Source: a phage
Sequence record: PZ171032.1
Length of the DNA: 64,000 bases
Reading direction: 5' to 3' (one strand)
Below are positions 1 through 11,770 of the stretch, piece after piece; position 1 is the first letter of the stretch, and each line of letters opens with the position of its first letter. The notes beneath the pieces are model-generated. The model searched no databases, was not told where the DNA came from, and worked only from the letters and a program-made list of their open reading frames with translations. The position numbers were made by a program, and so were the translations under genes.

Positions 1-200
1 GGATCGTAAAGGACATTAAGGAGCCTTTTAGGGTAAAAGTTAAGAAGTTTTTTGATTCTAAGATTAACATACTTGCCGTTGTGCTAGGCGTAATTCAACT
101 TCTGTTAATTTTGCACTATCTTGAACTGTTGTTTAAGTAGTGTGCAATAAGGCACAAAGGATGTGCCATAACTAAATAAACTAAGAAAGAGGTAGAGAGA

Positions 201-548
201 ATGCCAAAGATTAAATCGATATTAATGTGGGTAGCTGTTGTAGCTTTTGTAGGATACTGGACTTGGGAAACTGAATTAAAAGATATTGGATATACCAGTC
301 TTGAGAACAAGGCGTGCATTGGCATAACCGATGCATTCAGGCAAAATGCTATGGATCACGAATGTGTCGATGCAGACATAGATGAGAAACTGTCTAAGGA
401 CAAAGACTTCTACCACGGGTATGCTTTGCTTGATAGTGGGGACACTGTAGAGTTCTGGTCGTGGTTCCGTAAAGATGGAACAATAAAAACAGCAGTAAAG
501 ATCTCTAACAAAGAGTTAATGCTGTTGCAGCAGAAGGAGGCTCAATGA
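201..548 (+). CDS. hypothetical small membrane protein (N-terminal TM helix)
   Basis: ORF with upstream AAGAGG RBS; hydrophobic N-terminus WVAVVAFVGYW; first gene of a co-directional array. Confidence 0.6.
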   Translation: MPKIKSILMWVAVVAFVGYWTWETELKDIGYTSLENKACIGITDAFRQNAMDHECVDADIDEKLSKDKDFYHGYALLDSGDTVEFWSWFRKDGTIKTAVKISNKELMLLQQKEAQ

Positions 549-832
549 TCTGGATATCCTATGCTGATGGCACCATGCTGTATACTGCAGGTACCAGATA
601 TGAAGTTCAGGAGAACGATAAAAAATTTATCGTAAGAACATTTGACAAGGACGACAACCTTTTGCTAGAATTAACTTACAAGGTTGGGGATGTATCTAGC
701 ATCCAATTGGATTGTGGTCATAAAGATAACCCCCTCAAAAAACCTGGAATAGGCAAGGCTTCAGAAGAACGTTTGTCTCGTATTGCAGAAAGCGTTTCTA
801 ACCAAAAACCCAAAAAGAGGACCAGAAAATGA
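545..832 (+). CDS. hypothetical protein
   Basis: ATGA stop/start overlap with upstream gene; no recognisable motif. Confidence 0.6.
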   Translation: MIWISYADGTMLYTAGTRYEVQENDKKFIVRTFDKDDNLLLELTYKVGDVSSIQLDCGHKDNPLKKPGIGKASEERLSRIAESVSNQKPKKRTRK

Positions 833-1029
833 GTGACAAAATTCTTAAATTTAATACCTACTACGAGAATGATTTGAACGATCTGTATTATATAGTGCGT
901 AGCGAAAACCCGAATGTAGTGCTGTTTTGCAGAGAACCTTTCAAAAGAGAGGAGATTGAATCTACCATGGATGTGGATCAGATTTCACACCTGCTGCTCC
1001 TTGGATCATTAAAAGAGGCAGTATTCTAA
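829..1029 (+). CDS. hypothetical protein
   Basis: ATGA stop/start coupling; no motif. Confidence 0.55.
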   Translation: MSDKILKFNTYYENDLNDLYYIVRSENPNVVLFCREPFKREEIESTMDVDQISHLLLLGSLKEAVF

Positions 1030-1048
1030 ACCAGGGTGGAGGGTTTTT

Positions 1049-1234
1049 ATGAAGCACTATTGTCTATCTGGTAGAATGGGTGCAGATTGTGATTGGGTTT
1101 TCTTAAAACTTGTCAGCATTCGAGAGTTCATCCCGGAGGAAGAGCAAGAAAGCGAGCTGATGTCATGGATCAACCATTACGGTAACACTTTTCGGCATGT
1201 TAAGGTGGAAGAGTTGCCAAGCGAGGCTGATTGA
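1049..1234 (+). CDS. hypothetical protein
   Basis: GGAGGG RBS upstream of ATG. Confidence 0.55.
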   Translation: MKHYCLSGRMGADCDWVFLKLVSIREFIPEEEQESELMSWINHYGNTFRHVKVEELPSEAD

Positions 1235-1236
1235 CT

Positions 1237-1326
1237 ATGATTGCATCAATATTAACGTTTATGGGCGGCGTGGCATTCGGATTCATTGTTTGCCTGTTTA
1301 TAGTGATTATGTCTATGCGAGGCTGA
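1237..1326 (+). CDS. tiny hydrophobic peptide (29 aa, MIASILTFMGGVAFGFIVCLFIVIMSMRG)
   Basis: short ORF exactly filling the gap between two genes; single predicted TM helix; below the track size cutoff. Confidence 0.3.
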   Translation: MIASILTFMGGVAFGFIVCLFIVIMSMRG

Positions 1327-1329
1327 ATT

Positions 1330-1626
1330 ATGAAACTTTTTGAGTGGTTTAAAAAGTTTAAATATAAAGCTGTAGCCATCGTGCCATGGTCCATTCAATG
1401 GGTGGACGATGAGGGATTACCAATTCCAGGTGATAAAGACACGGGATACTGGATCATGCTTGAAAACGGGTTTGGAAAGCGAAAATATACGTGCACAAAC
1501 TCTACTCGATCTGCACTTAATAGAGTGCCTGGTTACAAACTTATGGTTGTGTGGAAAATGTCAGGCGTGCCTCCAGCTAACGCTCAATTTCTTACTGACA
1601 ATCCAACCACGGTGGAGGGAGATTGA
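1330..1626 (+). CDS. hypothetical protein
   Basis: ORF in packed array. Confidence 0.6.
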   Translation: MKLFEWFKKFKYKAVAIVPWSIQWVDDEGLPIPGDKDTGYWIMLENGFGKRKYTCTNSTRSALNRVPGYKLMVVWKMSGVPPANAQFLTDNPTTVEGD

Positions 1627-1628
1627 CA

Positions 1629-1910
1629 ATGAAAAAGATTAACAGTGGTGAAGTTGAGTTTAAACTTGTCGGGAAAGGCACTTACTGGGAAGTTCGTCAA
1701 AAGGTATATTTGTTCGGTCTTATTCCCTATTGGTCTAAATTCTACTGGGGAGCTAACGAGTTGGGAAGATACGCCACCAAATCAATGGTACTTATTGGTA
1801 TAGCAGAGTACATTGCAGCCAGAGATAGGGTTGGAGACACTTATTACTATACTGCGGACGATATTCGTAACAGTGTTTACGTCCCACAACCACCTGATGG
1901 AGACCGTTGA
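1629..1910 (+). CDS. hypothetical protein
   Basis: track ORF starts at TTG 1623; in-frame ATG at 1629 preceded by GGAGGGAG. Confidence 0.6.
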   Translation: MKKINSGEVEFKLVGKGTYWEVRQKVYLFGLIPYWSKFYWGANELGRYATKSMVLIGIAEYIAARDRVGDTYYYTADDIRNSVYVPQPPDGDR

Positions 1911-2134
1911 TGAAAGTTAAAGTTTTAGATTCAAGCTTCTATATTGGTCAGGAGCCTTTAGTAGGAAAAGTGTTTACTGCTATCCCTAACGAAGATTACC
2001 CTGACCTTTTAAAAATAAAAGGAGCAGATCTTATTGCCGCTGGTGCATCTCAGGACTGCTTTGACAGTCAGTGGACCTACAACTTTGCCCTAGGCGAGGA
2101 TGTAGAGGTAGTGGAGGACGATCATGAAGGTTAA
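1910..2134 (+). CDS. hypothetical protein, small-gene paralogue family A
   Basis: N-terminus MKVKVLDSSFYIGQ is near-identical to the next gene (MKVKILDSNVYLGQ); C-terminal hydrophobic-V-V-E-D motif. Confidence 0.6.
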   Translation: MKVKVLDSSFYIGQEPLVGKVFTAIPNEDYPDLLKIKGADLIAAGASQDCFDSQWTYNFALGEDVEVVEDDHEG

Positions 2135-2378
2135 AATTCTTGATTCTAACGTCTACTTGGGACAATCCTTCCTGAAGGGAAAGGTCGTTCCTGCGGTATA
2201 CTTTGAAGGGTTGCCGTGGGATGATCCTGTGCGGCAACATCACAGTTATGTAGGCCACAACGTGGTGTTTATCTTGGGATCAGACCTGATCACCGCTGGT
2301 GCACCTGAATATTATTTCGGGGAAGAGTCCTATTATGCCTTTGGGGTAGGGTCAGATGCGGATATTGTAGAGCTGTGA
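2124..2378 (+). CDS. hypothetical protein, small-gene paralogue family A
   Basis: paralogue of 1910-2134; C-terminus YAFGVGSDADIVEL resembles FAFVVGSDVEVIEE of 4268-4600. Confidence 0.6.
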   Translation: MKVKILDSNVYLGQSFLKGKVVPAVYFEGLPWDDPVRQHHSYVGHNVVFILGSDLITAGAPEYYFGEESYYAFGVGSDADIVEL

Positions 2379-2390
2379 TGGGTAACCGTT

Positions 2391-2789
2391 GTGAAAAATA
2401 AACTGTTTAAAGTTACAATGAAAATTCGCGGAGCTTGGAGCGTAAAGCAAGGGCGTATTCCGGAATTTGAGAAAGACTTCTACGTAGTCTCCACCTCGGA
2501 GGAGGCTGCATGCTGGCAGGCTGGCTATGCCTATGCAAGAACCTGGTACGAAGGATACCAGACTGGGGGCTATGACGGAGAAATTATCAGCAAGGGTGTA
2601 GAAGAAATTAATGTGTTGACAAGTGAAAAAGTTTTTGTTATAGTGCATCCAGATTCCAGAGTGAAGCATTACTGGAATGCCAGAACAAAAACTTGGACAC
2701 CGTTTGCAGATTCTGCTACACCACTTTTAAACCAAAAAGCTCTTGACTCTGCCCCAAGCTATGGGGTTGTTGAAGAAAAGCTAAACTGA
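2391..2789 (+). CDS. hypothetical protein, paralogue family B
   Basis: shares VHPDSRVKHYWNARTKTWTP-type segment with 4600-4995 (RHPHSNIAYYWDVLNNEWTP); GTG start, uncertain. Confidence 0.6.
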   Translation: MKNKLFKVTMKIRGAWSVKQGRIPEFEKDFYVVSTSEEAACWQAGYAYARTWYEGYQTGGYDGEIISKGVEEINVLTSEKVFVIVHPDSRVKHYWNARTKTWTPFADSATPLLNQKALDSAPSYGVVEEKLN

Positions 2790-2806
2790 AACAGTGAGGT
2801 GTCACT

Positions 2807-3097
2807 ATGATGGATTTAGTTCTGAATATTGATAACGCAGGAGAGGTTAAAGACGATGGTGTAACAAGCATGGACCAACCATGCCCTGCCAAGATTGACT
2901 CAAAATGGACATATAAGTTTGACGGAGAGATCTTTGCAAATGATGAAAAGGTTGTAGATGCTGCAGCCATTTTGAACGCTCTAGGGTACGACCCTGTGAA
3001 TTCTTTGATCAAGGATCCTGTTGAGTTTGCAGAGTATGTTCGAAAAATGGCAGATCTTGCTGTAGATATTTTAGATACTATCGATAATAAGCTGTAA
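2807..3097 (+). CDS. hypothetical protein
   Basis: GAGGTG RBS upstream of ATG. Confidence 0.6.
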   Translation: MMDLVLNIDNAGEVKDDGVTSMDQPCPAKIDSKWTYKFDGEIFANDEKVVDAAAILNALGYDPVNSLIKDPVEFAEYVRKMADLAVDILDTIDNKL

Positions 3098-3103
3098 AAA
3101 CTG

Positions 3104-3132
3104 TTGACACAACGCTTCAGCTATAGTATTAT
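3104..3132 (+). promoter_or_regulatory. sigma70-type promoter (TTGACA-N17-TATTAT) followed by 5'UTR hairpin
   Basis: TTGACA and TATTAT with 17-nt spacer; inverted repeat AGAGAGA/TCTCTCT at about 3142-3167 before the AAGGAG RBS of the HPF-like gene. Confidence 0.6.
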
Positions 3133-3184
3133 TGTTTTCAAAGAGAGATGGTTGTTATTCTCTCTTCCTTAAAAGGAGCACGTT

Positions 3185-3502
3185 ATGCAAATTGAAATCA
3201 CTGGCAACGTAGAAATCACTGAAGGTATGGTGTCTTTCATTTCCCACAAAATGTCTAAGCTGGAGCGTTTGCACCCCTCTGCCAACTATGCACGTGTTAG
3301 TGTAAAAGTTGAAAATGATCACCAGGAAGTTATGGCGTTCATTTTTGACAATTCTGGAAAAGAAGTTATTGCCAAAGCTAAAGGCAGTGATGCTTACGAG
3401 GCAACTGACCGTATGGTAGATGTTGCAGCACGTCAGCTGGCTAAATGCGGTGGAAAGAAAGGTAAGGGGAAAGGCAAAGTAAAGATTGACTTTGGAGAAT
3501 GA
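3185..3502 (+). CDS. ribosome hibernation promoting factor / RaiA (YfiA) family homologue
   Basis: MQIEITGNVEITEGM...KLERL...ARVSVKVEN...GSDAYEATDRMVDVAARQLAK aligns along its length with bacterial HPF (MQLNITGNNVEITEAL...KLEQY...VYVVLKVEK...GQDMYAAIDGLIDKLARQLTK); lysine-rich C-terminal tail. Confidence 0.8.
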   Translation: MQIEITGNVEITEGMVSFISHKMSKLERLHPSANYARVSVKVENDHQEVMAFIFDNSGKEVIAKAKGSDAYEATDRMVDVAARQLAKCGGKKGKGKGKVKIDFGE

Positions 3503-3511
3503 GGTGCTACA

Positions 3512-3613
3512 ATGGGCGTGATTAAGAAATTAGTCCCAAATGTAGAGATTGCATGCTTTGAAATTATGTTTGCAATCGCAGTTGTAGTTAATGTGTTAGG
3601 TTACGGCTATTAA
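3512..3613 (+). CDS. tiny hydrophobic peptide (33 aa)
   Basis: GAGGTG RBS 6 nt upstream of ATG; fills intergenic gap; hydrophobic core FEIMFAIAVVVNVLGY. Confidence 0.3.
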   Translation: MGVIKKLVPNVEIACFEIMFAIAVVVNVLGYGY

Positions 3614-3639
3614 TATCAAATAATTGAGGAGACCTCTAA

Positions 3640-3909
3640 ATGAAAATTAAATTATTCAAAACTGAGCTGGCAGACAAAAATTGTGGTCTGGTTGAAGGCA
3701 TGATTGTTGAAGCACAACCAGTGGACTATATGAAGGTGGTTCGTGATGCCCTGGGTGAAGGTTTTGATCTGATGGAGCCAGCTCTGCGGGAAGATGTTAT
3801 CGAGATGGCTAAAAAGCACACACCTGAAGGTTTGGTGGTGTTTATTGCACCGGGTAACGGAGAAGAGTTGATTGTAACTCCTGATGTGTATGAGATTGTA
3901 GAGGAATAA
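3640..3909 (+). CDS. hypothetical protein (family A-like C-terminus)
   Basis: GAGGAGA RBS; C-terminus VTPDVYEIVEE resembles the family A C-terminal motif. Confidence 0.6.
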   Translation: MKIKLFKTELADKNCGLVEGMIVEAQPVDYMKVVRDALGEGFDLMEPALREDVIEMAKKHTPEGLVVFIAPGNGEELIVTPDVYEIVEE

Positions 3910-3999
3910 TCCTGCTTGTATTAGCATACTTCCTCGATAAGGAAGGTTTGTAATTATTTGTGGGAAAGGAATCCCATCTCTTACCAGAGGTGATACTAT

Positions 4000-4263
4000 A
4001 TGATTGTTTATTTTAAAACTTCAGGTGGATACCCTGATTCTCAAAGCTTGATCGGAAAAACGTGCACAGCATACTCACCTCTTGATGAGGAGGTAAGCGA
4101 TATTCTACGAAATATGTATCGGATTGATCCCCAAGAAGCTTTTGATCAAAACCTTGTATTTGTCAAAGGCTCAGACATGAAGTCTTTGGGAGCATTCCCT
4201 GAAGCAGATGATGATGCCGTTTATTCGTTCATGACCCCTTTTGAAGCTATGGTTGTTGGGTGA
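4000..4263 (+). CDS. hypothetical protein
   Basis: GAGGTG RBS. Confidence 0.6.
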   Translation: MIVYFKTSGGYPDSQSLIGKTCTAYSPLDEEVSDILRNMYRIDPQEAFDQNLVFVKGSDMKSLGAFPEADDDAVYSFMTPFEAMVVG

Positions 4264-4267
4264 TAAT

Positions 4268-4600
4268 ATGAAAGTACGCTTTATTGGTGAAACAATTCCT
4301 GTGCATCTCCGGTCGCCTGAAGATTCTGCGGATCTTGCATCTCAGAAGGCGAGAGGTTATGATAAGAAAGTAATCTCAACCGATGTAGAACTTGAGGCTA
4401 CTAGTCTACCTGACCCTGCTGCATTCTTTAATCATTATGGATACTATTTCAGCAATCTGATGAATATCGGTGAGCTTGTGTTTATTAGTGGTGGAGAAAT
4501 TGTTAGCAAGCTTGGCGGAGATCCGGATGTCTTTCATGAAACCTGTCCTTTTGCATTTGTGGTGGGTTCGGATGTGGAAGTTATTGAGGAGGTGCAGTAA
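4268..4600 (+). CDS. hypothetical protein, paralogue family A
   Basis: track ORF starts at TTG 4241 overlapping upstream gene; ATG at 4268 follows upstream stop; C-terminus FAFVVGSDVEVIEEVQ. Confidence 0.6.
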   Translation: MKVRFIGETIPVHLRSPEDSADLASQKARGYDKKVISTDVELEATSLPDPAAFFNHYGYYFSNLMNIGELVFISGGEIVSKLGGDPDVFHETCPFAFVVGSDVEVIEEVQ

Positions 4601-4995
4601 TGGTAAGCCTATACCGTGTTGAGTATAGCTCAGATACTGTATACAACGTAAGAAGCAAAGATCGCAGCGACAGAGTGCAAGAAATGTATGTTCTTGCCGA
4701 CAGTCCGTTATCTGCAGCGTTCAAGGCAGGGGCTCTTGCATCTCGTTGGAAATTTGAAGGCGGATCTTTCTATGAAGAAACCCTTGAAGATTCTGTTGTT
4801 ATTTCTTCTGTAGAGGTTTCAGATGACTACGAAGGGAAAAAGTTCGTAATGCGGCACCCACACAGCAACATTGCGTACTACTGGGATGTTCTGAACAACG
4901 AGTGGACCCCAGATCTTCAGAAGGCCACTGTGCTAACACCGTTTTTGGCAGATAAGTTCCCACCAGAAGGTAATTTATCCGCACTGTTTCAGTAA
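4600..4995 (+). CDS. hypothetical protein, paralogue family B
   Basis: paralogue of 2391-2789; start overlaps upstream stop. Confidence 0.6.
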   Translation: MVSLYRVEYSSDTVYNVRSKDRSDRVQEMYVLADSPLSAAFKAGALASRWKFEGGSFYEETLEDSVVISSVEVSDDYEGKKFVMRHPHSNIAYYWDVLNNEWTPDLQKATVLTPFLADKFPPEGNLSALFQ

Positions 4996-5013
4996 TTTTC
5001 TTGCACACAGGTG

Positions 5014-5042
5014 TTGACAACACCAACCCTGTGTGAAATAAT
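5014..5042 (+). promoter_or_regulatory. sigma70-type promoter (TTGACA-N17-AATAAT) nested in an inverted repeat
   Basis: TTGACA and AATAAT with 17-nt spacer; flanked by 8-bp inverted repeat CACACAGG / CCTGTGTG (about 5004-5035), operator-like. Confidence 0.55.
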
Positions 5043-5074
5043 ACCTTCATCTTAACAAGACGGGAGACTGATTG

Positions 5075-5332
5075 ATGAAGATTAAACTGAAAAACCTTGA
5101 AATGGCAGAGATTCAGAATGGTGTTGATTTCCGCTCTAAAGATGGTGACATCTTAGAGGTAAATCTTCCAACCTACGAGCTGATTAAAGGTTTTGGCAAC
5201 GTTCAGGAAGAGGATATTCCAGAAATTCTTATGATGTTGATTCTTGACGGAACTGTGTTTGTAGGTGAAGGTGAGAACGCTATTGCAATCCCAGGCCATT
5301 TTTATGAAGTAGTTGACGAAGAGGTGCTGTAA
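5075..5332 (+). CDS. hypothetical protein (family A-like C-terminus)
   Basis: ATG at 5075 preceded by GGGAGA; C-terminus FYEVVDEEVL. Confidence 0.6.
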   Translation: MKIKLKNLEMAEIQNGVDFRSKDGDILEVNLPTYELIKGFGNVQEEDIPEILMMLILDGTVFVGEGENAIAIPGHFYEVVDEEVL

Positions 5333-5683
5333 ATGAAAGTAGAAATTACTGGTTTTGATGTTAGTGTGGTTCCGGAAGATATTTTAGCTAAACTCCCGGA
5401 AGGTTTTGGTAACGGTGTTGTGGTGGATGCTGTTCCTCCTACTAAAGACATTCTGCTGCAGTATGGTGTAGCAGAGGAAGATGTCGATAAAGTTCTTACA
5501 ATGATGGCAATCGATCGTGTTGTCGTTGTTAAAGGTCTCGATAATTTTGAGAGTGATCCTCTGATTATTCGCGGGGATGACTATAAAATCATCGATAATG
5601 AAGGCCAAGAGTTCTATGAGCCTTGTGCAGAAGATATTCTTAACTTATTACTGGAAGCAGGCACCGAAGAGGAGGACGAATAA
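5333..5683 (+). CDS. hypothetical acidic protein
   Basis: start immediately after upstream stop; acidic C-terminus. Confidence 0.6.
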   Translation: MKVEITGFDVSVVPEDILAKLPEGFGNGVVVDAVPPTKDILLQYGVAEEDVDKVLTMMAIDRVVVVKGLDNFESDPLIIRGDDYKIIDNEGQEFYEPCAEDILNLLLEAGTEEEDE

Positions 5684-6012
5684 TGAAGATTGACCCGTTA
5701 CTGAAGGCTCGTGCAGAAAAAGCGTACACCATTAAGCTGACCAACCTGGTTCCTACTTGTCATCCAGATGTAGGTTGGCCTGAAGGTCTGGTAGAGGGGA
5801 CTGTAACAGCTGCATACCTTCCTAACATCAAATACCTTATGGAAATCTTAGAGATGGATGAGGAAACTGCAGAACAGTTCCAGTTGGATATGAAACAGAG
5901 TGGGACTCTGGTTATTCACGGGTGGTATAATACTAAAGATGCAGAAGACCCTCTGGTAACTTCTAATCTGGCATATGAAATCTTAGGGCCTTTGAACCTG
6001 GAGGAAGACTAA
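5683..6012 (+). CDS. hypothetical protein
   Basis: ATGA overlap with upstream gene. Confidence 0.6.
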   Translation: MKIDPLLKARAEKAYTIKLTNLVPTCHPDVGWPEGLVEGTVTAAYLPNIKYLMEILEMDEETAEQFQLDMKQSGTLVIHGWYNTKDAEDPLVTSNLAYEILGPLNLEED

Positions 6013-6299
6013 TGAAAGATCTGGTTAAGATTAAGATTAAAGATACCAATGGGGAGCTCAGCCATTTTGGAATTAATGATGGTGACGAGCTGATCGCACA
6101 CCTGCCTACCAAGGAGGTTGTAAGCAAAGCAGTTGCCGGAGAAGAAGCTGCAATGCAGGCTGCAGGTGTGGATGAAAACTATGTAGCTATGTGCATGTGC
6201 CGAGATCAGGTTGTTCTGTATAAAGCGTATCGACCAAACGGAGCCACGGAGTGGCTTGTATTCCGACCCGAAGGATATGAAATCTTAGAGGCACTATGA
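6012..6299 (+). CDS. hypothetical protein
   Basis: ATGA overlap. Confidence 0.6.
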   Translation: MKDLVKIKIKDTNGELSHFGINDGDELIAHLPTKEVVSKAVAGEEAAMQAAGVDENYVAMCMCRDQVVLYKAYRPNGATEWLVFRPEGYEILEAL

Positions 6300-6379
6300 T
6301 AAATCTTGCCAAGGTTGCAACGGCACTGTTAATTATTTGCTGGTCAGTAACCTTAACACTGTGTCTTGTATTTCAGTGA
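6296..6379 (+). CDS. tiny hydrophobic peptide (27 aa)
   Basis: ATGA overlap with upstream stop; predicted single TM segment LLIICWSVTLTLCLV. Confidence 0.25.
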   Translation: MINLAKVATALLIICWSVTLTLCLVFQ

Positions 6380-6388
6380 GGTGCTTGT

Positions 6389-6652
6389 ATGAACATCCTG
6401 ATGTGGGTTATAGCAGTGGCGTTTGTTGCATGTTTTTGCTGCTGGGTTGTGGTGAGGATTTCTGTAGCTACCCTTCGGAAGTTGGGGTTCTCAGAATGGG
6501 ATATTAATATCCTTTCTTTTCGCAATGAAACAATCTCAGCCGCCCTGCTTTGTAAGAAATTTAAGTGGGAACCTTGTGAGGTCATGAGCTATCTAAGAAC
6601 AGGCGATATCCCTGAAAGATTTAAAAAAGTTCTTGACGGCAAGGATAAATGA
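6389..6652 (+). CDS. hypothetical membrane protein
   Basis: GTGAGGTG RBS; N-terminal TM helix WVIAVAFVACFCCWVVV. Confidence 0.6.
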   Translation: MNILMWVIAVAFVACFCCWVVVRISVATLRKLGFSEWDINILSFRNETISAALLCKKFKWEPCEVMSYLRTGDIPERFKKVLDGKDK

Positions 6653-6680
6653 CAGTATAGTGACTAACAAGAGGTGAGGG

Positions 6681-6821
6681 GTGACTGATTTTACTGAAGC
6701 TTTAATGATGGCCTTGTCTGTTTTAGCGCTATCGGTGTGTTTTGGGGCGTTATTCACATCTCTGGTTAAAGTTTTACATACAGTATTATTACCCAAGGGG
6801 CGCAGTAATGACGAAGATTGA
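6681..6821 (+). CDS. small hydrophobic protein (about 46 aa; GTG start, may start at internal ATG)
   Basis: GAGGTGAGGG RBS then GTG; TM-like LMMALSVLALSVCFGALF; overlaps next gene start. Confidence 0.3.
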   Translation: MTDFTEALMMALSVLALSVCFGALFTSLVKVLHTVLLPKGRSNDED

Positions 6822-7059
6822 CTTGAATGCTGGCGATCATGTTGTTGTCAAATGCATTGGAGATTATCTTGGATTCACAATCGGCAATACTTACGAGGCG
6901 ATAGTGGCGAAGGTTTATCATGATAAAGTCCTCAGTCTTGTATTTGACTGCGATGATGATGGGGATGACCGATACGTCTGTGAGGTGCTGGCACGAGACG
7001 ATAGTGAAGACCAGAAATTTCTGGTTATTGAACTGAACGGTATTTTTGTAGAACGTTAA
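6808..7059 (+). CDS. hypothetical acidic protein
   Basis: track ORF starts at 6742 (non-ATG); first ATG at 6808 (MTKIDLNAG). Confidence 0.6.
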   Translation: MTKIDLNAGDHVVVKCIGDYLGFTIGNTYEAIVAKVYHDKVLSLVFDCDDDGDDRYVCEVLARDDSEDQKFLVIELNGIFVER

Positions 7060-7087
7060 TTTAAAACAACATAAGGAGACTCTTACT

Positions 7088-7393
7088 ATGGCTAAATCTA
7101 AAGTTGAACTGTTCACCTCTCTTCCTTCTGACACTGCAGAGCGTGATCGCCTTCGCAAAACAATCGAAGAACTGGTGGAACTCCAACTTCAGATTAAAGA
7201 TCTGAAAGATGCCATTAAGGATATCATTCTCGTTGAGAAGCAGGATCATCTGTATTCTCCTAAATTCATCAAATCTTTGGTGGCTACAGAGTTTGATATC
7301 CGCTACGAAGCTGAAAAACGTCGCGCTAAGATTGAAGAAGAGGTTGAGCACATGTCTGAGGCAGACATTCTGTTCAAACGCTCTGTAGAATAA
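7088..7393 (+). CDS. hypothetical protein (charged, helical-looking)
   Basis: AAGGAGA RBS; charged helical composition. Confidence 0.6.
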   Translation: MAKSKVELFTSLPSDTAERDRLRKTIEELVELQLQIKDLKDAIKDIILVEKQDHLYSPKFIKSLVATEFDIRYEAEKRRAKIEEEVEHMSEADILFKRSVE

Positions 7394-7398
7394 TATGG

Positions 7399-7428
7399 CA
7401 GAGGGGCTACGGCCCCTCTTTCACTATT
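7399..7428 (+). terminator. rho-independent terminator-like hairpin
   Basis: GAGGGGC-TACG-GCCCCTC stem-loop followed by a T-rich tract, directly after the stop of 7088-7393. Confidence 0.5.
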
Positions 7429-7445
7429 TGCAAAAGGAACCAGCT

Positions 7446-7772
7446 ATGAGAATGCCAATCACTGTGAAAGAGCTAAATGAACGTGATGCAGGTGGTCTAT
7501 GGCCTGCACGAAAAATCCGCTGCGTCTATATGAAAGAGAATCTTGAACACCTTGATCAACAGATCAAGGTCGGTGATATTTTCGAGGTCTTCTATTCCAA
7601 TCGTCGCAACTGGGAAACCATTCAGCCTTCTGGTTTTGTTCTTGCCAAACTTGACACTGGAGAAGTGATTATCCCTGGGTTGGATATTGTCTTCGAAATT
7701 ATCCAGGAGTGGGATCCGGATAAGATTAGATACGAAGAATTATTCGGTAAAGGTATTATCAAACCTGTGTGA
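7446..7772 (+). CDS. hypothetical protein
   Basis: track ORF starts inside the hairpin at 7395; in-frame ATG at 7446 (MRMPITVKE) lies after the hairpin. Confidence 0.6.
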   Translation: MRMPITVKELNERDAGGLWPARKIRCVYMKENLEHLDQQIKVGDIFEVFYSNRRNWETIQPSGFVLAKLDTGEVIIPGLDIVFEIIQEWDPDKIRYEELFGKGIIKPV

Positions 7773-7780
7773 GGTGGATT

Positions 7781-8080
7781 ATGTCTACAAAGGCAGCTAA
7801 ATACTCTTATATGCCATCAACCTCTGCAGAGGTAGACTTTAGTTTCGATGTATTTCCACTGTTTGAGGTGGTTCTGGCATACCCTACAATACTATCTACA
7901 CCTGAATCACTTGTGCCTGTTAAGTTGCAGAACGCTATGCATTCCATGCACTACAACAATAAATGTAGGCACAGATGGTGTCAGGACGAGGAAAAAGATT
8001 TGGATAGTTTGAGGGATTTTGACAGTCACCTTTTGACACCTTTTAGCTACTCCAATCTTGATAAGCCCTCTTGGGTATAG
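7781..8080 (+). CDS. hypothetical protein
   Basis: track start GTG 7769; ATG at 7781 preceded by GTGAGGTG. Confidence 0.55.
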   Translation: MSTKAAKYSYMPSTSAEVDFSFDVFPLFEVVLAYPTILSTPESLVPVKLQNAMHSMHYNNKCRHRWCQDEEKDLDSLRDFDSHLLTPFSYSNLDKPSWV

Positions 8081-8293
8081 CAAAATATCAAATTTAAGAC
8101 ACCTAGGACGCTCTGTGGCGTCCTTTTCTTTATCTGGTGCACGATTGCATACCTTTGACAGATAATCTCATTACAGAGCGTTTAAGAGCTTCCTACAAAC
8201 AAATCTCTCTTTCGAGCGTAGCGAGAACGCACGTCCGTTTTGACCCAAATCACCATACGCTCGGATTTTAACCAAACCCTCGCGGCGTTTCTG

Positions 8294-8322
8294 TTGACAC
8301 ATTACCGCTTCAGTGATAGTAT
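8294..8322 (+). promoter_or_regulatory. sigma70-type promoter (TTGACA-N17-TAGTAT)
   Basis: CTGTTGACACA...CTTCAG...ATAGTAT closely matches the promoter at 3104. Confidence 0.55.
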
Positions 8323-8342
8323 CCACACATAGTTTGGAGAAT

Positions 8343-8444
8343 ATGGAATACACAATGAAAACACTGTCAGAGGTTTTAGTGGTGATCCTGATGATCATTA
8401 CGTCCATAGCAGCTGTTGCCGGAATACTCACGGGTGGAACATGA
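8343..8444 (+). CDS. tiny hydrophobic peptide (33 aa)
   Basis: just downstream of promoter; TM-like VLVVILMIITSIAAVAGIL; ATGA overlap with next gene. Confidence 0.35.
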   Translation: MEYTMKTLSEVLVVILMIITSIAAVAGILTGGT

Positions 8445-8653
8445 TCAACACACATGCATCTGAAGAGATATCCGAAGGAGTGACCATATGTCCCTTGGCT
8501 GAGCTAGGGAAAGAGGAAAACTTCGATTCTGAAGATTCTCCATCTCCGTCCCAGGGAGACCCTGAGGCTGATGACCTAACGTGGGAGGATATCATAGCCA
8601 TCTGGTTCTCTATTATGCCTGAGCACGAAGAGTTCAGAGGTGGGAGACTATGA
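8441..8653 (+). CDS. hypothetical acidic protein
   Basis: ATGA coupling to upstream peptide; acidic. Confidence 0.5.
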   Translation: MINTHASEEISEGVTICPLAELGKEENFDSEDSPSPSQGDPEADDLTWEDIIAIWFSIMPEHEEFRGGRL

Positions 8654-8774
8654 AGCACCGAGCCCACACAGGTTCCTCATGCTTTAGCATGGCCTGAAGA
8701 GGCAAACGTGCATAATTCCTGTGCATTGGAACGTATAAAACCCTGTTCACACTCTCATTTCCAGAGGAGATTTC

Positions 8775-8990
8775 ATGAAAATAGAAATATTTGGTGGGGC
8801 TGACAACACTCGTGGCCTGATTTACCTTGAATTCGATGAATCATACCTGCCAGAGGTGTTAAATATGGACTCTGTTGCTGAGGCTTTGGGGGTAAGTCCT
8901 AAAGAACTCCACTCTTGTGCTGAGATCGATGGTTGGGAAGAGACCATGAACATTGATTTCAGTGAAGTAGGTGATGAACCGCTGGACTGA
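8775..8990 (+). CDS. hypothetical protein
   Basis: GAGGAG RBS upstream of ATG. Confidence 0.55.
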   Translation: MKIEIFGGADNTRGLIYLEFDESYLPEVLNMDSVAEALGVSPKELHSCAEIDGWEETMNIDFSEVGDEPLD

Positions 8991-10489
8991 CACACAATAT
9001 TAGATGTCCGGCTAAAGTGCTGGAAGCACCTATAGCATATCTTTCAACTAAATTTCCTACCACCACAATCACTTACCTCCCACACATGACTGTTTGCTTG
9101 TTTAGTGAGCAGTCATGCCTTGACATTCTTGCCTATCCTGATAAAATTAAGTTCTTCTCTTTTCTTTTACCGAGTAATTCGGGTTTTCTGTTCTCTTCGG
9201 TTTGAAGGGGTATGGAGATACACCTGAGTGAACAGGGTGAACAACCGAACATTCGGCTATGGCATTAGCATGGCGAAGCGAACGGGTGACGAAAGAGGGG
9301 CCGGAGGACACCAGTCACTGCCATATGATATATGGGTGATAACCTGAAGAGTCTGAATAAGTGTTTAAGTACCAGTCAGAGGAAAAGGTGAATGGTAGCC
9401 GAAGGGGGAGGGGGGGTTTCTTGTATCTTTAATTTGTATATTATGTATACACTTGTAAACCAATTTCATCTGAATCTGTTTACCATACAAAGTGGATTGA
9501 GACAAATATTACCTATTAAACTTGAATTATTTATAGAAAATACCACAACACACCTTAAGTCTTTGATTTTACACATAAATCCTACAGATATTCAACCTCC
9601 ATATTTAACATACTTGTAACATATCCTATACCACACCTGCCTGATCAATTTCCCCAACTACATCCTCTATATTTTACCTGCCTGTACTACCCCTGCCCCG
9701 CCGGGAGTCCCGTCATATCTGGCTTTCCAGCAAATATCCCACCAACAAATATCATTGCCTGAAGAGGGTTTCATCCCATAATACATGCCTTATCTGAAGA
9801 GCGCTTCATACACCACGTAAATTTTTTAATTGACCCCTCCCCGCCGCCGGAGAGGTTGGCTTTTCCCACACAGACCTGAAGAGTCAGCCAGAAATATCTG
9901 AATAGGCCCAATTCTACCACGATTTTGACCTGACCTACAGGGAGGCCCGAAGGGTCTAGCTTTCAGCTAGAGTCCTTGCAGGACCTACAGGAGTGCTGCC
10001 AGGCGGACGGAATGGGAATACTTCTCATTTTTATAATAATTCTCAAATATCGAGGCAGTGAGGCAAATTAATAGGTGAGGCCGTTCACACAGTGGCACAA
10101 CATTTGCAACCTATCTTGTGTGGGGGAATGATAATACCTATCATTGTGAGAACCATTATCATTACGGGCAATTTAACATAATACCCATTATGCGCACCAC
10201 TGGCGATACATACAGGGATTGATAACATGAGTTACAGTTTACGCATATAACAATTATATTTCTTATCATTTGTGTGGGATATAGTTAGCAGCCAATAGAT
10301 TAGATATTGACCTGCATACTTCCAACCGTCTAGACGTCTAAACGCCCACACACCAAGGATTATACATACACTCCTGAATGTAAACAGGGCCGCAAAAATG
10401 CTACCATACAAGCTTGTAAATTTTTCATGCAGCACTTGACAAAGAGGAGAAAAACTTGTCTGACATAATGTGACCTAACTGACACAACA

Positions 10490-10590
10490 TGACACTTTTA
10501 CACACCTATTAGTTTACACACTGGATTGTTTACATTCCTGATTGTTCACATGCTAACCATTTACATGATTGACTGTTTACACACCGATAA
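10490..10590. repeat. iteron-like array of short direct repeats (TTTACACAC / TTTACAT, about 15-bp period)
   Basis: at least six copies of TTTACA(C/T) words spaced about 14-16 bp apart within 100 bp of ORF-free DNA. Confidence 0.5.
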
Positions 10591-10593
10591 TCA

Positions 10594-10613
10594 GCCATGC
10601 CATTCGTTTGCAT
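10594..10613. repeat. 20-bp direct repeat GCCATGCCATTCGTTTGCAT, copy 1
   Basis: exact 20-mer repeated at about 10825-10844. Confidence 0.6.
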
Positions 10614-10656
10614 GACAATAATTATACATGACAATAATCGCACTGATTATAATTAG

Positions 10657-10722
10657 CATGACATAATATAAAAGCAGGGCAACTATTAGCAGATCTATAG
10701 TTGCCCTGCTTGTTATGTCATG
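10657..10722. repeat. long imperfect palindrome (perfect 15-bp arms AAGCAGGGCAACTAT / ATAGTTGCCCTGCTT, extended by CATGACATAA arms)
   Basis: reverse-complementary arms around a 9-nt centre, seen directly in the sequence. Confidence 0.6.
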
Positions 10723-10824
10723 ATTAACTAAATACAAGGCAACTATGATCTGATTAATAGTTTGCAGACAAACTATCACGGGGGTGATGGTTACTGCTTT
10801 TATATTATGTCGCGACTCCGTCGC

Positions 10825-10844
10825 GCCATGCCATTCGTTTGCAT
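10825..10844. repeat. 20-bp direct repeat GCCATGCCATTCGTTTGCAT, copy 2
   Basis: exact copy of 10594-10613; preceded by palindromic GTCGCGAC. Confidence 0.6.
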
Positions 10845-11461
10845 AGTTGCCTTATTGTTACAGGTAAAATAATTACATTATTAATTATTTCTTATCTTTC
10901 TCTTAGTCATCTAATGATTCCAGTCAGTATAGTAATGTACAGTAAACATTAGACGACTAAATATTTCTATGCTTATGATAACTTGCCGTGACAATTTCGG
11001 ACTGTTTACGAAAAATGTTGACACCTGGGCGGGTTTATGTTATGCAGTTTACACGAATAATTATTTCATACAGGTATTGACTATTCCGTTATTCTGTGGT
11101 TGGAATAAATACTTTGCAGGCTATAGAATGGTGTGCGTACGTGAATTCTAAGATCTGGCGGCTATAGTTACACCCGATTTTTCACGTAGAACACGCTTTT
11201 TGGTTTGTGTAAGTGTATGACTTATAAAGATTTTTAGTTGTTGACAGGATATTGAAGATGTGCATCAGGTTAAATTTTGTGCAATAGCTGCAGTACGTGC
11301 ATTTTTGGAAGGAAAAACGTGTAAAAATGGTCCTGCTACCACATAATGAAAGATTATGCAATAGCTATTTTATATGTATATTTGTACAGTGTGTGGGATT
11401 GATGGCTCGTCAATTATTCCACTTGCTGGGTGGGGCCGTTTGTGGTAGGAGGAGAGCAGAC

Positions 11462-11486
11462 AAAAAGAAAGGGGCCTAAGCCCCTT
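11462..11486 (-). terminator. rho-independent terminator (minus strand)
   Basis: minus-strand hairpin AGGGGC-TTAG-GCCCCT followed by a T-run, just past the stop of gene ending at 11506. Confidence 0.5.
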
Positions 11487-11505
11487 GATAATGTAAATTG
11501 TTGTA

Positions 11506-11770
11506 TTATTTGTTACTCATCCAGTTTTCCCAAGCTGCCTGATAATCTGCCTCACTGCGGCGGATCTCTTCTTGTTCTTCAAGCCGGATCTCTTCTTCCA
11601 GGTACCCCAAGATATCGGCTTTTTTTGGTCTGGCGTAACATCCAATCATCTTTTTTACGGGTAAAGATCTTATATGCTTTCTCGCAAACCTCTTTTTTGC
11701 TACCTTTTTGGACTTCAAGAACTTTGTAGGCCATGTACTGAACTAGTTTGAGCTGATCAAGACGTTTCAT
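11506..11770 (-). CDS. hypothetical protein, apparently interrupted by a frameshift at a homopolymeric A tract
   Basis: two overlapping track ORFs (11579-11770 and 11506-11718) in different frames; frame switch coincides with an A7 run; fused product would be about 88 aa. Confidence 0.4.

Follow-up and report, generated by a model that had tools for sequence, protein, structure and literature searches.

A short HPF/RaiA family protein encoded by rV5-like coliphages and its possible role at the host ribosome

Do rV5-like coliphages carry a homologue of the bacterial ribosome hibernation factors, and what might such a protein do to the ribosomes of the host? This question is raised by a small gene in the stretch of phage DNA analysed here (sequence record PZ171032.1; 64,000 nucleotides, referred to as the window), which belongs to the genus Vequintavirus, i.e. 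to the rV5-like coliphages. According to the list of open reading frames, the gene, designated hpf, occupies positions 3185–3502 on the + strand, starts with ATG, and encodes 105 amino acids followed by a stop codon. A Shine-Dalgarno sequence, AAGGAG, was read from the sequence at 3173–3178 (+), with the ATG located 6 nt downstream. The predicted protein is 100% identical to gp139/ORF144 of phage rV5 (ABI79209, YP_002003641), and the two orthologous genes share the same neighbours, the same promoter, and the same genus.

The earlier note on this DNA had proposed an unusual form of translational takeover by the gene product. The hpf gene of rV5-like coliphages has, however, already been described, and its identification here is a re-discovery: it is contained in the rV5 record (DQ832317) and in many further genomes, and it is treated in two Nature Communications papers. 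In the rV5 reference record, the annotation reads RaiA or "sigma 54 modulation factor"; one of these two names, or HPF, is also attached to the gene in many of the 119 phage records that matched. ABI79209 appears in the list of ribosome-associated proteins encoded by viruses that was given by Mizuno et al. 2019 (PMC6375957), whose phylogeny groups it with the gammaproteobacterial HPFs. Mathieu et al. 2020 (PMC6969025) noted hpf, "as already described", in another five rV5-like phages of the gut. Our literature search returned no functional study of rV5 HPF later than these two papers and no transcriptome or expression-timing data for Vequintavirus; in a host-factor screen for the rV5-like phage LL12, hpf, rmf, raiA, and ribosomes are unmentioned. 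New in the present analysis are the dN/dS values, an orthologue in a sister lineage that has the promoter and lacks the leader hairpin, the retention of this hairpin within the genus, the variation of the C-terminal tail, and the conservation of five out of six listed basic rRNA contacts.

Profile searches and structure prediction, both of which had been called for by the earlier note, placed the protein in the HPF family. Residues 3–88 matched Pfam PF02482 (Ribosomal_S30AE) with an E-value of 1.8e-12 and a score of 48.3 bits (curated gathering score, 23.7 bits), covering positions 1–83 of the 88 positions of the model. This was the sole Pfam match within the 105 residues. The score obtained with NCBIfam TIGR00741 (HPF/YfiA family) was 45.9 bits and thus above the curated cut-off of 40.9 bits. 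In a phmmer search against the PDB, the best sequence match was E. coli HPF (2rql; E = 5.4e-12), to which residues 1–89 aligned end to end with residues 1–89, in agreement with the initial claim that the protein is collinear with bacterial HPF/YfiA. AlphaFold2, supplied with an alignment of 21 sequences, returned a model with a mean pLDDT of 85.9, in which each block of ten residues within residues 1–80 averaged above 90. The predicted elements (beta1, residues 2–7; alpha1, 13–29; beta2, 33–43; beta3, 46–55; beta4, 60–67; alpha2, 70–89) form the beta-alpha-beta-beta-beta-alpha topology of the HPF-type fold, and AlphaFold2 together with Foldseek delimited a folded HPF/YfiA domain of residues 1–89, encoded at 3185–3451 (+). 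When the model was compared with the PDB by Foldseek, the first 37 matches were exclusively HPF, YfiA, protein Y, or plastid pY. The leading match was HPF of V. cholerae (4hei_A; TM 0.93, rmsd 1.0 Å), and E. coli HPF bound in the 100S ribosome (6h4n_x) matched with a TM of 0.90. Long HPFs of the Firmicutes, Thermus, and plastid type, with a total of about 180–190 aa, carry a C-terminal dimerisation domain behind a linker; this domain was not found in the 105-aa product, which holds PF02482 only and ends in a tail predicted to be disordered. Neither of the two outcomes that the earlier note had named as refuting the assignment, a missing profile hit or an incompatible fold, was observed. We concluded that the hpf product is a true HPF/RaiA homologue, a single-domain member of the short HPF/YfiA type (Ribosomal_S30AE), and that it is nearer to gammaproteobacterial HPF than to RaiA.

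Residues by which E. coli HPF contacts the ribosome were transferred to the phage protein via a HMMER alignment. According to a cryo-EM preprint (10.1101/2025.10.07.680626), only Lys80, Arg83, Lys87, and Lys91 touch the ribosome among the residues that are identical in E. coli HPF and YfiA. The same study names Lys26 and Gln29 near m3U1498 (Lys23 is not listed), Thr53 and residue 62 at m2G966, and His55 together with Glu60 at the C-terminus of uS9. Five of the six listed basic contacts are kept in the phage protein. E. coli K26 corresponds to K25 and Q29 to R28, which is basic, while R83, K87, and K91 occur at the same positions; K80 alone is replaced, by V80, and the sister lineage has Thr here. 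The unlisted K23 is present as well, as K22, a position with at least 90% conservation across the aligned family. E60 is kept, the sister lineage having Val. Changed are T53 (F52), H55 (F54), and H62 (I62), the last being Val in the protein of P. aeruginosa. In the orthologue of the sister lineage, which is 64% identical, K22, K25, R28, R83, and K87 are all identical. Furthermore, the hpf product retains all positions with a conservation of at least 90% in the family alignment of 21 sequences, and in 19 aligned cellular family members the changed positions vary as well: position 80 can be Val or Thr, and position 54 can be Phe. The sequence therefore offers no argument for a loss of ribosome binding, and binding itself would be predicted.

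The reading that we favour, and regard as moderately probable, is that the hpf product binds vacant ribosomes, thereby preserving an idle pool, and competes with HPF, RaiA, and RMF of the host. To judge from the promoter type and the gene neighbourhood, hpf would be transcribed by host RNA polymerase early in infection. The protein would then, like its cellular relatives, occupy the tRNA/mRNA channel of the small subunit in vacant host ribosomes. Binding would occur via the basic residues that are kept in alpha1 and alpha2, and the basic tail may add contacts to rRNA. Ribosomes that become free as host mRNA disappears would be kept as protected, quickly reactivated 70S particles, with the phage protein competing for them with the host factors. 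Since the phage depends on translation as well, a global shut-off is less likely. Speaking against the favoured reading are the loss of Lys80, the difference of the beta-sheet contacts from those of E. coli HPF, and the tolerance of the distal tail to truncation and frameshift, and also the negative outcome of the sole published experiment (500 mM NH4Cl, OD600 = 1).

In that experiment, rV5 HPF was expressed from pBAD24 in E. coli NM522 and was present in the crude extract, while no peptides were detected in 70S or 100S ribosomes, and the abundance of 100S particles was unchanged (PMC6375957). Cells had been harvested at an OD600 of 1, and ribosomes had been pelleted through a cushion containing 500 mM NH4Cl. 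As possible reasons, the authors named the growth phase, stripping by salt, and a genuine loss of binding (PMC6375957). The takeover of translation by ribosome silencing that had initially been claimed for this locus has no direct support; the published expression, with its 500 mM NH4Cl wash, yielded neither 70S/100S peptides nor a change in 100S. The same data might suggest that the HPF fold was exapted, i.e. that stable ribosome binding was lost and the protein now serves in another role, for example at another RNA or as a decoy. The loss of Lys80 and the changed beta-sheet contact residues would be in line with such a shift, as would the large distance from all cellular relatives (22 proteins at E ≤ 1e-3, the best cellular one 45% identical), and the strong purifying selection described below implies some function. 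However, most basic contacts and every position that is near-invariant throughout the family are kept, and the positions that did change also vary in bona fide family members. In addition, the salt wash may remove loosely bound factors, as listed by the authors themselves (PMC6375957), and RMF, HPF, and RaiA are detected in crude ribosomes according to a review from the Wada laboratory (PMC13152769). No defence or anti-defence profile matched the hpf product. We consider exaptation very unlikely and retain ribosome binding with competition as the favoured reading.

Downstream of the folded domain, AlphaFold2 and the charge distribution indicated a disordered, basic Lys/Gly tail of residues 90–105 (GKKGKGKGKVKIDFGE), encoded at 3452–3499 (+). 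Model confidence drops past residue 89, with pLDDT values below 50 for residues 93–100. The lysine-rich tail that had been noticed at the outset was thus confirmed: seven of the 19 residues at positions 87–105 (KCGGKKGKGKGKVKIDFGE) are Lys, AlphaFold2 renders the tail disordered, and the net charge of residues 89–105 is +4. The tail is encoded by a repetitive GGN/AAR sequence, and its length and frame differ between isolates. The protein of phage Murica has 99 aa and ends in GKGKAK, that of APCEc02 has 101 aa and is frameshifted to GRKKGKGERQSKD, and that of ECP32 has 105 aa with DFLD at the C-terminus. An IMG/VR contig (L008) encodes 104 aa with an extra Gly-Lys repeat (GKGKGKGKIDFE). In the sister lineage, the protein of 103 aa carries the tail KYSKSKGIDKRTAKWDY, which is different but also basic. 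Across these sequences, the basic character of the tail is conserved while its exact sequence is not; the variation arises by slippage or frameshift.

The position of the tail bears on a further interpretation. In RaiA, a flexible tail runs toward the RMF site and prevents RMF binding and 100S dimerisation (PMC13152769; 10.1101/2025.10.07.680626). The phage tail begins at the position where the RaiA tail starts, a likeness that is positional only; no sequence similarity was found between the phage tail and the RaiA tail. By analogy, the phage protein could sit in the HPF/RaiA site and cover the RMF site with its tail, such that 100S dimers are prevented or dissolved. Mizuno et al. put forward essentially this idea, proposing that phage HPF might compete with host factors and prevent dimers (PMC6375957). 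The phage would then still be able to use the ribosomes of hosts that grow slowly or are stationary. The C-terminal extension beyond the length of HPF fits this proposal, as does the basic nature of the tail in both phage lineages despite their differing sequences, and rV5-like phages figure prominently among gut phages (PMC6969025). Hosts in the gut are often nutrient-limited. On the other hand, similarity to the RaiA tail is lacking, the score with the RaiA profile is only 17.6 bits, and viable isolates with a truncated or frameshifted distal tail exist (Murica, APCEc02). Against the proposal also stands the small 100S fraction, which was unchanged in the expression test (PMC6375957). We therefore treat RaiA-like action against hibernation as a tentative and rather unlikely interpretation. 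Equally doubtful in our view is its extension to the genus, according to which Vequintavirus HPF is an anti-hibernation factor whose tail blocks RMF, so that 100S particles are dissolved or prevented and idle 70S ribosomes are shielded from RNases. If it were true, the ribosomes of starved or stationary gut E. coli would be captured by the phage, which might contribute to its unusually broad infectivity. Binding of vacant ribosomes in competition with the host factors remains the reading that we prefer.

How widely hpf occurs was addressed in a phage collection and in larger sequence sets. DNA of the hpf locus is 95–99% identical to that of 91 phage records and 90–95% identical to that of 26 further ones, all of the records in both groups being rV5-like Vequintavirus, and the gene is present in all 118 matched Vequintavirus records of the collection. 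The phage collection was searched by tblastn, once with the phage protein and once with E. coli HPF, and almost only Vequintavirus was returned; the exceptions were one Xanthomonas jumbo phage and a few fragments. A word-indexed protein search yielded only near-identical proteins and one 64% identical orthologue, and phmmer was used for distant relatives. An exhaustive phmmer search of 1.8 billion cluster representatives produced 22 proteins at E ≤ 1e-3, of which the closest cellular relative is 45% identical and resembles enterobacterial HPF. Because only these 22 proteins were obtained and the nearest cellular one is 45% identical, phage hpf is taken to be an old, diverged capture.

Two other candidates for HPF-related genes were rejected. 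A protein of 1160 aa (P0006) with eight matched stretches gave the appearance of a multi-HPF-domain protein; Pfam identified it as a repetitive PPC-domain protein, and the match was considered spurious. Within the window, the open reading frame at 3640–3909 was evaluated as a second HPF gene and has neither a Pfam match nor similarity to hpf. Several records label it "sigma 54 modulation factor", a label that originated from APCEc02_082 and spread by best-hit naming.

The 64% identical orthologue (P0004; 103 aa) is located on contigs of up to 137 kb and lies in the same order of small genes. Of its 7.9-kb region, about 30% aligns to any deposited phage, at 73–80% identity; these contigs represent a sister lineage that is absent from the phage collection. 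Within Vequintavirus, dN/dS of hpf is 0.045–0.055 (about 0.05). The comparison of the window with phage Aya, for example, gave 26 synonymous and six non-synonymous changes, corresponding to a dN/dS of 0.045. Between the window and the sister lineage, pS is 0.80, which is saturated, and pN is 0.22. The substitution pattern shows strong purifying selection on hpf in two diverged phage lineages, and the gene predates their split.

These values are difficult to reconcile with a neutral passenger that was captured from a host and has no role in infection. In favour of such a passenger, hpf is located among many small accessory open reading frames and no phenotype has been reported. However, a dN/dS of about 0.05, saturated synonymous sites relative to the sister lineage in the face of 64% protein identity and a retained gene order, the occurrence of the gene in every matched Vequintavirus record, and a conserved promoter of its own all argue against it. 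A neutral passenger is strongly disfavoured and, in our estimation, most improbable, and the favoured reading of a ribosome-binding competitor of the host factors is carried on here.

The intergenic gap upstream of hpf spans 87 bp and is the largest within a run of tightly packed small open reading frames on the + strand. It contains a sigma70-type promoter at 3104–3132 (+), with the -35 hexamer TTGACA at 3104–3109, a spacer of 17 nt, and the -10 hexamer TATTAT at 3127–3132. The sequence matches the sigma70 consensus at 11 of 12 positions, and AAACTG, located before the -35 hexamer, is conserved. In ten Vequintavirus sequences, the -35 hexamer and its flanking sequence AAACTGTTGACA are invariant, and the -10 hexamer is TATTAT or TATCAT. 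The sister lineage retains AAACTGTTGACA and the 17-nt spacer, followed by TGcAATTAT, an extended -10. At this site, the rV5 reference record NC_011041 annotates "Sigma70-type promoter; P144". The near-consensus promoter proposed at the outset was thus found to be conserved and had already been annotated. As a class, promoter-like sites at positions 1–10000 are not above chance (27 observed versus 21.7 ± 4.1 expected); all nine of the sites in the first 10 kb that match at least 10 of 12 positions are on the coding strand. Because it is conserved, the predicted hpf promoter is well supported as a real one.

The leader that would be transcribed from this promoter contains a stem-loop at 3141–3166 (+), consisting of an 8-bp stem of AAGAGAGA (3141–3148) with TCTCTCTT (3159–3166) and a loop of 10 nt, with a predicted energy of -8.7 kcal/mol. 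With the -10 hexamer ending at 3132, the predicted transcript start is near 3139–3141, and the stem would therefore lie 1–2 nt from the 5' end of the transcript. In the minimum-energy fold, part of the Shine-Dalgarno sequence pairs with CCUU in a weak 4-bp hairpin. The leader taken as a whole folded no better than shuffled sequences, with a z of -1.3 and 20 of 200 shuffles folding equally well. An IMG/VR scan returned two loci, which is too few for an analysis of covariation, and deposited phage records were used instead. In nine distinct Vequintavirus sequences, 96.8% of the cells over the seven counted stem pairs are paired. One pair is compensatory, being A-U in three and G-C in five of the sequences; a stem mismatch occurs in two of the nine, and loop length is variable. 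The covariation score of the stem was equalled by 29 of 500 column shuffles. In rV5, the stem takes a 7-bp GGG/CCC form with a shorter loop, whereas that of the window is an A-U-rich 8-bp form with the 10-nt loop. No stem is present in the sister lineage, where the leader measures about 23 nt. The structured leader claimed in the earlier note amounts to a stem kept across Vequintavirus, with weak folding statistics (z and column shuffles), and is absent from the nearest diverged orthologue.

An Rfam search with the leader as a known RNA element returned no match at E ≤ 1. The other eight strong promoter-like sites are without a comparable 5'-terminal stem, and the hairpin was therefore rejected as a general feature of early transcripts. 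The inverted repeat might alternatively serve as a protein operator; the co-variation of the stem, with a loop that changes in length and sequence, makes this reading less likely. During mRNA decay in E. coli, transcripts that begin with a stem-loop are protected from 5'-end-dependent attack by RNase E. The 5'-terminal geometry suggests that the stem-loop is probably a genus-specific stabiliser of the mRNA, and we infer that it does not act as a switch.

A homologue of hibernation factors is thus kept in every matched member of a widespread, broadly infective coliphage genus. If binding to host ribosomes during infection were true, the system would offer a clean and tractable example of how a virus manipulates ribosome dormancy. 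The diverged orthologue, the retention of all listed basic contacts except Lys80, and the natural isolates with a truncated tail should aid the design of experiments.

Among known systems, the short HPF of E. coli and other enterobacteria (YhbH; PDB 2rql, 6h4n, 4v8h) has the same fold as the hpf product, with TM values of 0.85–0.90. The identity to E. coli HPF amounts to 41–44% (41% over residues 1–89), and the equivalents of K22, K25, R83, K87, and K91 are shared. Both proteins have an acidic core, with a net charge of -2 in the phage protein and -3 in E. coli HPF. Most phage isolates differ from E. coli HPF by a one-residue deletion after G7, and the phage Lys/Gly tail is 10 residues longer than the C-terminus of E. 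coli HPF, extending from the same point. With the enterobacterial HPF equivalog PRK10470, the score of 55.8 bits does not reach the cut-off of 125. By these scores and identities, the hpf product is a divergent relative of gammaproteobacterial short HPF and not an orthologue-grade match. The expression signals differ as well, since host hpf is under stationary-phase control while the promoter of phage hpf is of the sigma70 type and constitutive-looking.

The likeness to HPF would be most simply extended to classical HPF action, in which host ribosomes are silenced and driven, together with host RMF, into inactive 100S dimers. The core does score far higher with the HPF model than with the RaiA model (55.8 versus 17.6 bits), the identity to E. 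coli HPF is considerable at the values given above, and short HPFs, among them a copy bound in the 100S ribosome, give the best fold matches. However, 100S formation was not discernibly altered when the protein was expressed in E. coli (PMC6375957). A lytic phage also depends on active ribosomes for the whole of the infection. Moreover, the tail is longer than that of HPF and starts where the dimer-blocking tail of RaiA starts, and the score remains far under the enterobacterial equivalog cut-off. Classical HPF action is quite unlikely in our judgement, and vacant-ribosome binding in competition with the host factors remains the favoured reading.

RaiA of E. coli (YfiA, protein Y; PDB 1n3g, 4v8i) has the same fold and belongs to the same binding-site family, and both proteins have a flexible C-terminal extension past the folded domain. 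The identity to RaiA is 25%, and the score with the RaiA equivalog PRK10324 (17.6 bits) does not reach the cut-off of 158. The extensions themselves differ, that of the phage protein being a basic Lys/Gly tail of 16 residues and that of RaiA comprising about 24 residues with an acidic run at the end. In large lytic phages, members of the same Pfam family occur in Cronobacter phage GAP32, in Xanthomonas jumbo phage XaC1, and in PHROG 8990. Phage hpf is assigned to phrog_12469 (7.5e-71), which PHROGs labels "unknown function", versus 1.5e-6 for phrog_8990 (S30EA family). In the phylogeny of Mizuno et al., the rV5 group and the GAP32 protein fall into separate clusters (PMC6375957), which argues for an independent acquisition of the rV5-group and GAP32 genes.

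A 103-aa orthologue of hpf, the HPF/YfiA-family gene at window 3185-3502 (plus strand), is encoded in a sister lineage at 64% identity and in the same gene order as in the window. This Vequintavirus-like lineage comprises the contigs L003 and L004-L006 and has no representative in the phage collection. Of region 1-7900 of the 125.8-kb contig L003 (Logan ERR6997038), no more than about 30% could be aligned to that collection, at 73-80% identity. The NCBI source organism given for the sister-lineage hpf protein is 'Escherichia coli'.

On both sides of hpf, window 1907-6299 contains nine small ORFs of 74-116 aa. N-termini of the MK[IV]K type are common to them, and their C-termini take the form ..YE[IV][IV]EE or ..G.D.E[IV]VE. 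Compared one by one with the first ORF, the others are 11-46% identical to it, and a Pfam search with four of the nine returned no match for any of the four. Judged by their sequences, the nine ORFs look like two loose paralogue groups.

The 3' end of hpf itself harbors a promoter-like site (TTGACT and TACAAT separated by 16 nt, with TG upstream; within window 3486-3613). Directly after this site lies a conserved ORF for a hydrophobic 33-aa protein (3512-3613), which is gp140 of the reference phage rV5; the annotation of phage I29 lists its counterpart as 'putative membrane protein'.

At 3640-3909 follows an ORF of 89 aa. Several deposited genomes, among them APCEc02, nomo, naswa, navn, ECP32, and JLBYU08, give its counterpart the name 'sigma 54 modulation factor'. 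As a Pfam search yielded no match for this ORF and its sequence is not similar to that of the genuine hpf gene, we rejected this designation, which appears to have originated from a mis-assigned name in APCEc02 and then spread. Counterparts of hpf are named 'ATP-dependent protease La Type I' in OR062525, OR062530, and MT884008 to MT884010, and 'hypothetical protein' in many other records. The locus at window 2800-3900 also occurs in 18 MG0656xx records that are titled 'Campylobacter phage' and state Campylobacter, mostly C. jejuni, as the host. Their DNA identity to this part of the window exceeds 90% and is mostly 95-99%; the 18 records are probably coliphage assemblies that were mislabelled or arose from contamination.

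Window 9000-11700 includes about 2.6 kb without any ORF of at least 100 aa, and an Rfam search of this stretch gave no match. A strong promoter-like site is located at 9120-9147, and repeats cluster at 10594-10860, among them an exact direct repeat of 20 nt (copies at 10594 and 10825) and a perfect inverted repeat of 18 nt (arms at 10660 and 10794). The stretch may serve as a replication origin or encode a non-coding RNA; its counterpart in rV5, region 104013-106618, was described as 'non-coding' in the rV5 paper.
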